Assembly (NCBI GenBank): GCA_036172245.1
Contig: JAYWIR010000028.1
Location: 2,728,001-2,792,000, forward strand
Source: Raillietiella orientalis
Taxonomy: Eukaryota
Direction: 5' to 3'
DNA: 64,000 nucleotides
In this document: positions 28,782 to 62,600 of the stretch, in pieces
Layout of the letters: every line of letters starts with the position of its first letter
How positions within the stretch are numbered: the stretch's first letter is position 1
Position numbers and translations under genes: made by a program
Notes under the pieces: generated by a model
Seen by the model: the letters and a program-made list of their open reading frames with translations, nothing else
The model's database searches: none
What the model was told of the DNA's origin: nothing

Positions 28782-31468
28782 TTCATTTGTGAGAGGATAC
28801 AAAATGGTTTGAAAGCTAGCCATTATGACACTGCCCAGTCTTCCTATCCTTTCTCCCTGATCGATGATCGACATCGATTTTCACACAACACATGGTTGTC
28901 TAGGTTGTTTCAGAGTCCAGGAGCCCCCTTGGGTCGCAAGCATCATCAGGTGCTCGTCCTAATCGATCCGTCCTGTAGACATCGTCCTGCTGCAACGAAT
29001 AACGGAAGAGACCATCAGCTTTTCCATTTTATCAGCATATCTTTTAGGGATATCCATCTGTCTCAGGACTCCATCATTCTTAGGATCCCAGGATCCTAAG
29101 ACTCCAACTATAATGGCATGGAGGTAGCTACCTTCATTCCTCCTCGGGAGAGTAAATGCTTAATTTGTTGGTATTTTCCTTCTTTCTCTCTCCTGGCAGT
29201 GAGGAATGCTTCCTCCCCATTATCAAAGGGACAAGAAACATTTAACACCACCATTTCTGCTGTCTTTCTGGAGGACAAGGTCTGATCGCAATGATGAATC
29301 CACATCCGGAACTTGCTGGTTCGCAGAGATCAGCCTCCATCCAGCTATTGGAATGGAGGCTTCCATCTTATCCACGATGACATTGTGGCGTTGTTGGTAC
29401 AGGGGAGAATGCCTCATGCAGTGGTTTAATATATGAGACAGAATTTCATCCCATGTACTACATCGGCGACAGAGCCGATCCTATTCAGGTCTTTGGATTC
29501 CTCTAATCGGCAGAGATTTAGCCTTGCCGCGTGGATAAAATGAAAATCTGCGAAACGCAGATAGTCGCCACTAGTCAGAAACAAAATGGAGACTTGATGG
29601 AGATCAACGAACCGCATGACTTTCCCTTGGTCAGAGTGCTTATTAATTAGGGAAAACCATGCTGATTCCTGCTGGAGACTCCGAATTGTCGAAGCAGCCT
29701 TCTTCCTGTGGGTAGAACCAATAACCACTTCCGAAATGCAGATTAAGATCTGCATTTCGGGAGTGTCACCATCAACCCCTTCCCAAGATGTAGACAGCCT
29801 TCTTGAGGCCTGTCTTATCGTCCATAGACTTTTGACACCACCACCATCACGCTGGAATTTTTCATCAGTTTCCCCCGAAAGATATTTTGCAAGATCTCCT
29901 CTGCTGGTAATGAAAGAATTTTCTTCCAAACCAACTCCTGGAGAGAATCCATAGCAAGTTGTTTAACTGTAACATCCGGTGGAGTAAGGAGCTTAAAACA
30001 AGAATCCAAAATAAAGGTATCAGCTTCATCATGCCTAAGCAGCCCTTCTTCCTATCACTGTAGATATATTCATTGGCCGCTCTTGAGGACAGATGAAGTA
30101 GCTCCTTCGTCATTCGTCGAATCTCCTTATCAAGATGAGCCTTGTCACCCTTCGGATGCGTTCCCAGTCTTTCAAAATGTATGAGACTGAGAAAATAAAG
30201 GGTCTTAAGTGCACCCCACTTTTGCCAAGGTGCTAGGCCACTTAATAGGATCTTCGAAGCCTTACTCAGTATCTCTTCTTTGGAAGGATGCTTAATGCCC
30301 TCCGGTCTGGAAAATCTCTAGACGGAAGGGCTTACCCAGATACTTGTACGCTTCAGACAAAGACAAGCTCGGAATGGGCATGCCTCCAGCCTTCAGCGTC
30401 AATTTCTTTACGCCCCTCGGTGTTTTCCCATGTTGGTAGAAAGATTCACATTTGGACGCTTCAACACGAATGAGTCATCCTGTTATCCAATTCTTCCTCC
30501 GTTTTTGCCAGGATGACAAGGTCATCAGCATAGGCAAGAAAAAATTCTTCTCCGTAGCTTTCCCTGAATGTCCGAAGAACATATTCCATGGCGATTATGA
30601 ACAGAAGAGAGCTCAATGGGAGCCCCTGCTTGATACCCCTCTTGAGCAAGAAAGGCCTAGTGATTGACATATCAAGCTGAATAAATGTGCAAAATGTCGA
30701 ATGTGTAAGTCCTTGTAAATATGTTCAACAATCTTCATAAATTCATTACCAGCTTCCTTCATTGCATTAAGCAAAAGACAGTGCGGGATTCTACCAAATG
30801 CATTGGATATGTCAAGAAACAGCAATCCCAGGTCCTCAGATTTCCTTCTGGAAAGACGTGTTTGGAGGATAAAGTTCCGATCCAATACGCTCCAATCTTC
30901 AAAGGGTAAAAAGCCCTTTTGTTGGAGACAGATGATCCTTTGCTCCACAGTCCACTCTTTAAGTCTCACAGTGAGGCATTTTGCAAAGAACCTATATATA
31001 CTGTTTCCTATTGATATAGACCTCCAATCTTGTATGTTCATGGATAATGCTGTGTCTTCGGAAGCAACATTGTTTTGGTACATTTCCATGCTTCTGATAT
31101 CTTCGCAAATTTAATTAAAATATTAAAAATCGGCGTTAAAAGTACTCCTTCAGGATGAACCATTTTCCAGCCGGCGTAAGTAATTCCATCAATTCCTGGG
31201 CTTGAATTTTCGACCTTCTTCAGCCAGTAGGACACCTCATCAGATGACAGAGGATGAATCTCAAGCGGAGAAGCATCCTAATCTCTGCCTTTCTGCATGT
31301 TCTCTGATAAAGCTTCATCAGCTTCACCTTCTACCTCCAGCTGCTGATGAAAGTGCTCCTCGACCTCTTCCAACCTTATTTTACATCTGCTATCTTGCTG
31401 CTTAATAATTGATCGAATTGCTCTCCTATTCACTCTGTAGAATTTCTCCATTTCTTTTTTATTTTGTG
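28782..31468 (-). mobile_element. Utopia-type (U2 snRNA-targeting, RLE) non-LTR retrotransposon, 5'-truncated and frameshifted
   Basis: Ordered motifs: EKFYRVNRRAIRSII; SSPGIDGITY; WRSISIGNSIYRFFAKCL; QKGF; FLDISNAFGRIPH; RGIKQG.PLS.LLF; LAYADDL; LAPWQK; DQGKVM; LRFADFHFIHAARLNL; RHNVIVDK; RSDLVL..NVSCPFDNG..ARREKEGKY; LGSWDPKND. The two halves of a U2 gene flank it in the same orientation. Confidence 0.92.
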
Positions 31469-56899: not shown

Positions 56900-57747
56900 T
56901 TTTTTTTTTTTTTTTTTAAAGGCCAGTAGCGACCTTACGATCGTTACTATCGGTCTAGGATGATGGAAATCCTCCTTTTCTGTCTTCGCAGTCCTTCGAC
57001 ACCGTTCCACGCCACCCGAGGGTGGGTAATTCTTCAAGATAGGGGGTACCCCGGGAGAGATCCTCCCTATGAATCCAGGAAGGACTCGGAGTCCGTTCCT
57101 CTCACGCCTGGGGAGGGAACCCTGGAAATGGAGATCATCTCCACCCTGGTTGTCTCCGAAAGGGAACCCTGAAGAGAATCTCTTTCTTCATTCTCTCCGA
57201 AGCACCCCCGAGGGGGTCCGCTCCATTCTTTCCTCTCTGAAGGGAACCCGGAAAGGGTCCGATCCTGGAATTTCTTCTCCGGAGGGATCCCCCGCAAGGG
57301 ATCCGCTCCTGCCTTTACTCTTCTGAAGAGAATCCAGAAGGGACGCTTCCGAAATCCAGAAGGACGCAGAATCCCCGGAGGGATCGGCTCTCGTCTCTGC
57401 ACTCTCTGGAGAGGTGGTGGCGACACACCTACTCCATCAGTACGACGAGAGGTCCCCCCCGGAATGGGGGTTCCGCTCCTTCACAACCAGAGGGAAGCTC
57501 CCACTCCGTGATTCCTGGAAGTACCCGGAGGTCGACTCCCATTTGACCCGGCCCTCATCGGGGGGCATCCGGTTTCAGCCGCTGCCAATGCCGCATCCGG
57601 ATGAGTGTAGGCCAACCAGCGTCATCTTGTGGGGTGAACTGGGAACCCACGACGCACTGCGTCGATTCCTTCGGAGTATTCGAACCCACGACTCTTAGTG
57701 GTGCCACGCGCGGAGACCACCGTAACCACACGGCCTCCGACGCGGGC
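56900..57747 (-). mobile_element. Long tRNA-derived SINE, copy B (full length, poly(A) tail, 14-bp TSD)
   Basis: Direct repeat AGATTTGCCAACTT at 56886-56899 and 57748-57761. T20 at 56898-56917 is poly(A) on the minus strand. 5' end GCCCGCGTCGGAGGCCGTGTGGTTACGG (A box like tRNA-Leu/Ser GGCCGAGTGGTTAAGG) and B box GGTTCGAATAC at 57676-57686. Confidence 0.88.
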
Positions 57748-59689: not shown

Positions 59690-62600
59690 TAACGGGTACA
59701 TCGGGTGAAAATGCATCCTTCATCCATCCCAGGAAGTTTTCGAACCTCTCTGCTCGAGAGGAACGCAGCTGCTGATCTCATTGTGATGTTTGTCTCTCCG
59801 CGATGCTTTTGTTTTCTTGACAGATTCACTTCCTCCCAGTAAGACTTGGGGTTCTGCGCGATCCGAACGAATCCTTGCCTTACCAGGTCCTGTGCTGGCA
59901 ACTCCGGCCGTTGATCACAGCAATCAGCTCAGTCAGAGATCAGTTGCTCTGTGTGATCAATCACATAGAGCAACTGATCAGTTTGTTCAATGGCTTAGTC
60001 GCCAGAACGGATAACTGAATCTCTAAGAGAAACGTTCGAGAAGCCGCAGGCTGAGGTATCCAAAGCTGGGGCTGCAGCTAGGGCGAATACGCTGGCGTGC
60101 CTCGTGGCATGCTGTCCGAATCTTGAGGCTGATGAGATGAAACAGCCTTCAGAGGACTGGGAATTCCATGGCCTCCGTCCTGCTCAGCACAGCATCCCAT
60201 ACTTCTTCACCCGTTCGATTTTTCTCTTCCTCCGCCTGAACGCTGTTCTGTTGGCAATGTTCGGGCGCTGCTCGGACGACTGCTGGCTTGCCCGGCTCCT
60301 TCGAAGGGACGTCGCGGCCTGCTGGGCGTGCAGAGCTTCCGGTTGAACGTATCCGGTCGCGTTGGCGTTCCTCCGTCGTCGCTGTTCGTTCTCTCCCGAC
60401 ACCGTCGCTCCCGAAACCTCTCCTCTCCCCTTCACCTTCTTTCCTTACTCCCGGCTGCTGCGACCGGGCTCCACCGGGAAGTCTGGTCTTCTGGCTCCGT
60501 TTCTCTGCCGCCTGTTCTTCTGGACGAGTTCGTCCTTTGGAGAGTCAGCAAACGTGTGAGAGCCACCCGTCAGCCCGGGGGACGCCCCTCCCTGAGGACC
60601 GGGGCGACGAGCGGAACGCGAGCCCAGGAGGTTATAGACTCCCTTCCTCCTGGAATGAGACTTCGACAGCCAAAGCACGCCATCCCCGGCGCAAAAGATA
60701 CCGAAAACCGGGTGCGGGTCTGTTTGAAAGAATTCCATGGCACAGCCGATGGAAACCTAAAGGACTTGCTGCTGCTCTGGCGTTGTTTCTGGACTCCTTG
60801 AAGGGATTCATCGAGGTTCATATAGCGCAGCAATTTTTTGGTAGTGGTAGTTCTTACATATGTGCATCCGCAATGTTAGCAGTTCTAGGGCATATGTTTC
60901 CTGTATGGTTGAAATTCAATGGTGGAAAGGGAGTTGCAACAACTTTGGGGATTTTGATAGCACTTGGTATTCATATATTTGTTTGGCTAGCAGTGTTTTC
61001 TATCTTTCGATACTCCGTCCAAACAGCCCGTGTCGGAATAGAGGTTGTATCTCAGGAGAGGTTTCCCTGAGGATTTTCCAGAGCAGCAGCATCCGATGGC
61101 GCTCAAGTTCGGTTCTGGTTCATCAGGCATCCCTTGCGACGTGATTCGAAGGGAAGTGCTAGGAAGCGGAGGGATCATCCGACTCCGGATACTTGAAGAT
61201 GGGCTTATCTTGTGGAATACTGAGATAGCAGTCTCTAAAGTTTTCGGATGTCCGCATCTTCTCTAGACCTTTCAATGGCCCTTCCATGCACGATGAAGCA
61301 GTAGTCAGTTTCACGCACCCGTTGCTGCCGATTTCCATGGCTTCCTGGAGTGCAGGTTTCCAACGAGGATTTTGCTCCACAGAGGTTCAGATCTTGCTCC
61401 AGGGCGTGCACACTCCTCCTCCAATGACACACGAGGAATTCTTTGCCTGAATATGCTCAAGCGGTTCGGGATTTTTCCCTTATTCCTAACGGTCTAGAGA
61501 AGCTCTCGTCTTCAGCGTTCCTGAGCAGAAGAGCATCCTCGGCATGCCCTTTCCAATGCTGAGATCCTGAGATTCACTCATTTGGCCATTCCTCAGGAGC
61601 TCGAGAGTCAACAACGGGAGAGGTGTCCCTCTCTCCAAGTGTACAAGAAGAATAGGGGTAATCCGATGAGGGAAGAGGCGCATCCTTGTTTATGCATCTT
61701 TGCCTGGCTCCATGGAGCCATCATTCTCATTGTTCCTGAAGAGCATACGAAAACCCTGCATAGCTTGAGCTGAGGAATTTGAAGAGATCTGCAAAGTTGG
61801 ATGGGTGGTGATGGTAGTGGTGTGGAGGGTGGAGGGCTCCTTCCTCTCTCTCAACGGAAGAATGGAGATCGAGTCCGCTTGCATACGCAAGAGCCGTTCC
61901 CTGTCTGGGAGCATCTACAAAGAAAGCGAAGAGTCCTCTCTTCGCTCCCACCATCACCAGAAACACTCGTTTTTGGTGATGGTCTTCACCTCCTCTCCGG
62001 GATCCTGTCGCTAATTTGACGGATCTCTTACAATTGAGCATTCAGTGGGCCCAGTTCGAAGAGGGCGGTTCCTGTAATTTTCTGCGACGAATCACGTTTC
62101 CCTCGCCGCTTACGGAGCTCTTCGTGAGAACATCCTAAAGAGCATCCAAGAGCAAAGTCCCGCTCCTCTGACAGCCTCTAGCGAGACTCTCCGAGAGCAC
62201 TTGACGTGCAAGGGGAGGCTTCTTCTTTCTTTCGCCTCCTCGCCGTCTCCTTCGGGAGCTTCCTTCCCCTCTCCAGCGTGAGCAGCTCCTTCCTTCCATG
62301 CATCCCACGAAGGCAAAACGTTCCAAGGAAAACGTTTCTTTCAGCATCCGGAAGGAACATCCTCTAGCAATGTCTGCGACATCTGAATCTTTTTCCAATG
62401 GAACACACGACACTGAATTCCCTCTGTGGGACCCGCTCAAGAGACGCAGCGTCCCACAGGGTAACTAGGACGAGAGCTGTGTGACTGGGTGTCAGAGGTC
62501 GCTTCGGACTCCGAAACCGGCCCCTATGCATCTCGCCGATGGGTGGAAGGACATCCTCTGATCCCACGAGCTCGTTGCTCCTTCAGTCAGCACAGGGTCT

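Follow-up and report, generated by a model that had tools for sequence, protein, structure and literature searches.

The window, a stretch of 64,000 nucleotides (positions 2728001-2792000 of contig C28, which is 2,967,228 bp long), carries a 259-base piece of the bacterial acyltransferase gene plsY inside a dispersed host repeat (Table 1). This piece is the single plsY match in the 210-Mb, 491-contig genome. Positions 60759-61016 of the forward strand translate to 86 residues without a stop, as the original prediction had stated, and the assignment to PlsY is borne out by a match to the Pfam family G3P_acyltransf (PF02660; E 6.9e-20, 72 bits against a cut-off of 24). The TIGR00023 PlsY model also matches (E 1.2e-15), with a score of 57.9 bits that lies under its whole-protein cut-off of 137.2.

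Table 1. Features of the insertion locus (window positions) and older Wolbachia pieces on other contigs (contig:positions)
Feature	Position	Strand	Basis or remark
5' arm of old dispersed host repeat	60142..60757	.	32 other matches on 20 contigs, 66-88% identity
276-codon stop-to-stop frame enclosing the insert	60240..61070	+	Met codons only within the insert (residues 212, 219)
Internal fragment of Wolbachia plsY, very likely supergroup F	60758..61016	+	residues 49-138 of the 194-aa PlsY; start and stop codon absent
GCT x3 where Wolbachia has two codons (3-bp duplication)	60768..60776	+	donor alignment
PlsY motif 2 core GGKGVA	60921..60938	+	only one retained of three PlsY motifs
Site of 15-bp in-frame deletion, one TAT copy left	60974..60976	+	donor alignment
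3' continuation of the same host repeat, directly after the insert	61015..61051	.	paralogue alignment
Old Wolbachia fragment, best match other than F	C3:1529960-1530576		
Old Wolbachia fragment, best match other than F	C1:10392320-10392822		
Old Wolbachia fragment, best match other than F	C37:1752477-1752891		
Old Wolbachia fragment, best match other than F	C46:917357-918270		

Anatomy and insertion site of the plsY fragment

The borders of the insert are as abrupt as had been claimed. DNA similarity to Wolbachia is confined to 60758-61016, and the bases that adjoin this stretch in the donor are missing on both sides. Its AT-richness holds only in relative terms, with 41.3% GC in the insert, 62.4% and 51.0% in the two 500-bp flanks, and 39.5% in the homologous donor stretch. 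The in-frame loss of about five codons that had been placed before the residues FVWL measures exactly 15 bp, or five codons, and the deleted stretch is flanked in the donor by a 3-bp TAT direct repeat. A second indel, the GCT duplication near the 5' end, had been missed, and probably arose by slippage. Both indels are absent from all ten F-type Wolbachia genomes. Four substitutions, two synonymous and two non-synonymous, are likewise found in none of these ten genomes, amounting to about 1.6% private change, part of which may belong to an unsampled donor strain. Such a low level of private change suggests that the insertion happened recently compared with the age of the host repeat.

Aligned with the solved Aquifex PlsY (5XJ5), the insert corresponds to residues 54-138. 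It spans under half of the protein and provides neither the full seven-helix fold nor a start codon. Motif 2 (aaPlsY 100-107) is kept as GGKGVA, and the residues GHMFP are kept too. Motif 1 (aaPlsY 34-45) and motif 3 (177-189, with His177 and Asn180) lie outside the aligned residues and are therefore absent; motif positions follow PMC5700162, the available text of which describes His177 in motif 3 as indispensable. Because the start codon and motifs 1 and 3 are missing, the insert could not be an active enzyme, and judged by its sequence it is almost certainly non-functional.

The reading frame is nevertheless still open, as would be expected if the insert had been co-opted as an exon or peptide. 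Neither indel shifts the frame, no stop interrupts it, it lies inside the 276-codon open frame, and it is one of only four open pieces among the 31 discussed below. Yet no ATG precedes the insert in the 276-codon frame, and a search of 60760-61300 found no GT[AG]AG donor-like splice site. Two of the four private substitutions are non-synonymous (too few for a selection test), a slip in a GCT repeat is in frame by construction, and the insert sits inside a decayed repeat. Recruitment can therefore hardly be credited, and we read the 276-codon frame as a chance product of GC-rich DNA.

The flanks had been described as retrotransposon debris. Their repetitive nature is clear from the 32 other matches of the 5' arm, but a retrotransposon identity found no backing, since Pfam returned no family for any of nine read-through translations of the flanks and one paralogue, the sequence being either non-coding or too far decayed. 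Rfam, searched over the whole window at the gathering score, gave 0 matches. The 3' flank beyond about 61051 has no match elsewhere in the genome.

Both flanks were aligned separately to 15 loci, representing 14 distinct paralogous places, with about 270 random control stretches each. In five of the 14 places (on C45, C15, C31, C22 and C18) the 3' flank resumes no more than 5 bases from the projected junction and outscores all of the roughly 270 controls. The place on C9 was not counted, its best match being 48 bases off the junction, and in the other eight the copy stops short of the junction or scores at chance level. The repeat thus runs straight across the insertion point in five empty copies, which argues for real integration in an animal chromosome, as had been proposed; on this comparison of paralogues we have hardly any doubt that the insert is part of the host genome.

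The three best empty copies indicate a loss of 1-2 host bases, a figure uncertain by a base or two since the copies are only 70-80% alike. Donor and host share the bases CC at 61015-61016, so that the right junction shows 2 bp of microhomology. Neither junction shows a target-site duplication, so retrotransposon-mediated insertion is not favoured. These features are consistent with a scenario in which end-joining repair of a double-strand break placed a 259-bp piece of supergroup F plsY into the old dispersed repeat in the host germ line, with 1-2 host bases lost at most. The four substitutions, the 3-bp duplication and the 15-bp deletion would have been gained afterwards, or already in an unsampled donor strain.

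The surroundings hold other features. A second repeat family occupies window positions 57026-57745, with an inverted partner just past the window end and a copy on C15 (79-81%). A decayed reverse transcriptase remnant lies about 30 kb away, at 30616-31110 on the reverse strand (RVT_1, E 8e-6, below the cut-off), and the other 12 of 13 flank frames had no Pfam match. About 33 kb past the window, on the reverse strand of C28 (L091:4976-8890), open frames of 559 and 281 aa look like host-gene exons, presumably PRRC2-like. When the window and six adjoining 10-kb stretches were compared with 340 kb of the F-type genome G011 and 32 plsY loci, no further Wolbachia match was found.

Donor lineage and Wolbachia fragments across the genome

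The claim of a Wolbachia donor held up in a protein search. Among the best 120 of 7,033 matches, every named entry in the top 111 (61-87% by the tool's measure) is Wolbachia, the leading named ones being symbionts of Madathamugadia and Mansonella; the matches beyond these fall to 47-56% and include Pelagibacterales and Ehrlichia among those named. DNA comparisons gave a plsY match in 56 of 60 Wolbachia genomes. An alignment of 32 genomes (the best 30 plus L001 and L002) separates the candidates by ungapped identity over 234-255 bases, which is 88.2-95.3% to ten F-type genomes, the closest at 95.3% with gaps excluded, and 72.5-82.0% to the other 22, with C-type genomes at 77-78%. The insert matches six of six F-diagnostic columns. 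At the protein level, it shows 89-93% ungapped identity over residues 49-138 to the supergroup F PlsY of Cimex, Madathamugadia, Mansonella and Melophagus strains.

The original prediction had also expected that the piece could identify the supergroup, and phylogeny does so. In a tree on the 270 fragment columns, the insert falls in the clade of ten F genomes with support of 98/95, its position within F not being resolved, and the same clade is recovered with full-length references (90/72). AU tests reject joining the insert to supergroup A (p 0.029), B (p 0.0009) or D (p 0.012); joining supergroup C is not rejected (p 0.061). The PlsY proteins of the ten F-type genomes are identical or close to those of Cimex, Mansonella and Ctenocephalides symbionts, or to members of the same clusters. 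We take the Mansonella strains to belong to supergroup F. Both wCle and wMhie are assigned to supergroup F in the available text of PMC8116671. Taken together, sequence identity and phylogeny make a supergroup F Wolbachia very likely the donor.

Four 18-20 kb stretches of G011, together 78 kb or 6.2% of that genome, were used as queries against the host genome and gave at least 49, 27, 38 and 47 matches (25-32 candidates scored per search). Removing repeat matches to the same place left 35, 27, 32 and 34 rows, corresponding to 91 places on 52 contigs. Matches on C371, C10, C44 and C22 to the rRNA-like start of L133, which we take to be 23S rRNA, were excluded as probable host rRNA. This leaves at least 87 Wolbachia-derived places on 48 contigs, of which a few weak ones may be false; three 108-bp rpoB matches (74-75%) and the tuf matches (about 70%) are kept in the count, though possibly not Wolbachia-derived. 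The screen of the assembly that had been proposed thus turned up much more Wolbachia sequence, and the plsY piece, at first treated as isolated, is one of at least 87 such places. From the 43 places (8.6 kb) derived from Wolbachia sequence that is single-copy within 340 kb of G011, the load of the whole genome would be roughly 700 places and 140 kb, and the insert would be one of probably several hundred fragments. Fragments in such numbers would point to a long heritable Wolbachia infection of the lineage.

The host loci that were fetched contain 80 Wolbachia segments of 33-1,391 bp and 68-99% ungapped identity, some of them mosaic. Among 31 coding pieces of at least 150 bp at 28 hand-picked loci, 27 carry a frameshift or stop; those still open are the plsY insert and three shorter pieces. 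Clusters or mosaics of Wolbachia sequence occur at C56:13-30 kb, C34:2031403-2033766, C13:4338692-4344922 and C9:4461068-4461590, the last joining two distant Wolbachia genes end to end. About 800 bp at C41:712843-713647 are 85% identical to a transposase-like repeat of G011. A COX1-family remnant about 6 kb from the C34 cluster (C34:2039601-2041000) has no mitochondrial DNA match and 31-38% protein identity to COX1, and is probably a fragment of a bacterial oxidase.

These observations also bear on the possibility of an assembly chimera or contamination, in which the contig would wrongly incorporate DNA of a live Wolbachia carried by the animal or present in its food. A random mis-join is unlikely because it would not keep the repeat in register on both sides, as it is in the empty paralogues, and add private indels found in none of the ten F-type genomes. 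Moreover, dozens of other pieces have decayed to varying degrees, and the four 18-20 kb queries matched no long Wolbachia contig of high identity, although this says little on live infection, since assemblies are often filtered. On these grounds we regard a chimera as very improbable.

The fragments differ in age and in closest relative. Two young pieces, from rpsD (on C21) and eno (on C4), are 91-93% identical to Wolbachia and find their best match in F genomes among 26, so that all three young fragments tested, plsY included, are of type F. Four old pieces of 70-77% identity (Table 1) have A-type genomes, a D-type genome or the unplaced genome G060 ahead of F, by margins of 1-4 points in best matches only. 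Their sequences suggest an earlier and different donor or infection.

Donors of more than one kind are also what would be expected had the fragments been acquired from Wolbachia living in prey or intermediate hosts, with no infection inherited in this lineage. Coprophagous insects serve as hosts in the raillietiellid life cycle (PMC4047961), and the four older fragments without an F best match fit several donors. Against such an origin, the approximately 700 extrapolated places are comparable in number to the 483-653 regions of filariae with live infections (available text of bioRxiv 10.1101/2025.03.17.643741), and the young fragments agree on F in three cases out of three. Access to the germ line at such a scale would also be simpler for an intracellular symbiont. 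We consider a prey origin improbable and retain the view that the fragments reflect an infection inherited in the host lineage.

Comparable records are known from nematodes. In Dictyocaulus viviparus, genomic fossils of a clade F-like Wolbachia revealed an unsuspected infection, as described in PMC4046930. The present genome resembles that case, as far as the available text describes it, in having many short, disabled, F-like fragments co-assembled with the DNA of a vertebrate endoparasite without a prior Wolbachia record. It differs in that Dictyocaulus, a nematode, holds almost 1 Mb of F-like sequence, whereas here the host is a probable pentastomid, the extrapolated total is about 140 kb and some fragments have 95-99% identity. 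Nuclear Wolbachia transfers (NUWTs) are described as common and mostly non-functional, and filariae with live supergroup C infections carry 483-653 NUWT regions (bioRxiv 10.1101/2025.03.17.643741). As in those worms, where more than one supergroup of origin is interpreted in the accessible part of that source as a record of symbiont replacement, we find short dead inserts, by extrapolation in the hundreds, and more than one apparent supergroup origin. Unlike them, our host belongs to another phylum, and our supergroup calls come from one tree and six best-match tables, compared with the genome-wide HMM and tree screen described there.

Placement of the host from its mitochondrial markers

The mitochondrial contig C282 (9.2 kb) is composed of 36.1% A, 28.8% C, 6.7% G and 28.4% T, with a GC skew of -0.62. 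For comparison, six pentastomid mitogenomes have 27-33% C, 6.9-7.5% G and a skew of -0.575 to -0.648 (PMC12202648, available text), and that of Argulus japonicus has 18.5% C and a skew of -0.307 (PMC10999652, available text). The three best COX1 matches of 8,000 scored candidates are Armillifer armillatus, Linguatula arctica and A. agkistrodontis at 72-73%, just above insects (72.5-73.2% for pentastomids vs 70.7% for the best insect). The host carries 30 of 64 pentastomid-diagnostic COX1 residues, compared with 12 in the best of 117 insects, 5 of 40 in Octopus and 8 of 40 in Trichoplax. A quick COX1 tree groups the host with pentastomids (SH-aLRT 100), outside Armillifer and Linguatula; its outgroups were insects, Octopus and Trichoplax only, without Argulus, mite, ostracod or copepod, and a shared C-rich composition could be pulling long branches together in it. 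A barcode-length COX1 search for a near relative gave 70% at best and no close one.

Mitochondrial tRNAs were called with the mitochondrial mode of ARAGORN, the bacterial mode having given none. At a relaxed threshold, trnL2 (TAA) was called directly after cox1, and so sits between cox1 and cox2, a derived pancrustacean state according to the available text of PMC10355681. The trnL2 position speaks against a mite host; a mite-like reading of the 18S (C360:594-2426) is opposed by it and by COX1, and these two markers also led us to discard a nematode host. The trnK gene adjoins trnR instead of following cox2, as in Armillifer moniliformis and Argulus japonicus. With Armillifer, the host mitochondrion has in common the order of protein genes, cox2-D-atp8 and R-K; it differs in having W next to cox1, E-N-F-A-S1 ahead of nad3, and K on the opposite strand. 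The resulting tRNA block G, E, N, F, A, S1, nad3, R, K (L180:4590-5420, on C282) is rearranged and unlike both Armillifer and Argulus, and might serve to recognise the genus. Between cox1 and cox2 lie about 500 bp (L180:1740-2310, on C282) with a second trnL2-like copy before cox2, an arrangement that recurs in C285 and in a copy on the nuclear contig C50.

At 71-94% identity, nuclear copies of this mitochondrion occur on C50, C33, C32, C63, C15 and C18. Because C15 and C18 carry both such copies and the flanking repeat of C28, the mitochondrion and the window belong to one genome. We also observed 54 COX1-family matches, most with TGA read-through, which indicates a genome rich in nuclear mitochondrial copies; of five more that were checked, four are such copies.

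Taken together, these mitochondrial sequence markers allow us to place the host in Pentastomida with good confidence. The same dead F insert might instead reside in another arthropod with a rearranged, C-rich mitochondrion, such as a branchiuran or other crustacean. The margin of COX1 over insects is just 2-3 points, the trnK-trnR adjacency is common to Argulus, the tRNA order is unlike that of Armillifer, and branchiurans and chelicerates are missing from the COX1 tree. Nevertheless, the three best COX1 matches are all pentastomid, and the base composition fits the six published pentastomids and not Argulus japonicus, as far as the available texts report it, so we consider another arthropod unlikely. 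Our overall reading, which we regard as probable, is a young, non-functional transfer of supergroup F plsY into an old repeat of a pentastomid outside Armillifer and Linguatula.

Implications if the host is a pentastomid

The insert itself is an ordinary nuclear Wolbachia transfer of a known kind, and the pairing of host and symbiont may be new. On its own the insert is inert, and its value is as a record of a host association. Wolbachia has been described in snake mites (PMC10911609, available text), and the crustacean strains known as of 2012, from isopods, amphipods and barnacles, all belonged to supergroup B, with ostracod infections also cited (PMC3335409, available text). Our case resembles the crustacean ones in its association with a probable crustacean and differs in supergroup, F here vs B there, and the available text of PMC3335409 mentions no pentastomid. 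Our literature search found no report of Wolbachia in pentastomids; most subscription journals lay outside that search, so absence from print is not shown.

Pentastomids are blood-feeding crustacean parasites of vertebrate airways. If the host is indeed one of them, the fragments would record a lasting association with Wolbachia among animals from which the literature searched reports none. Supergroup F is common to arthropods and filarial worms (PMC8116671, available text), and would then extend to a crustacean endoparasite. A speculative and rather doubtful extension of these data is that pentastomids have, or until recently had, an inherited supergroup F Wolbachia of their own that took the place of an older non-F strain. 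The finding raises a question that could be tested cheaply, namely whether live Wolbachia occurs in tongue worms and whether it is needed. If F Wolbachia were still present and needed, as in bedbugs and filarial worms, it would represent a further independent partnership in a vertebrate parasite, and, if this is true, F Wolbachia would be a possible antibiotic target in pentastomiasis.
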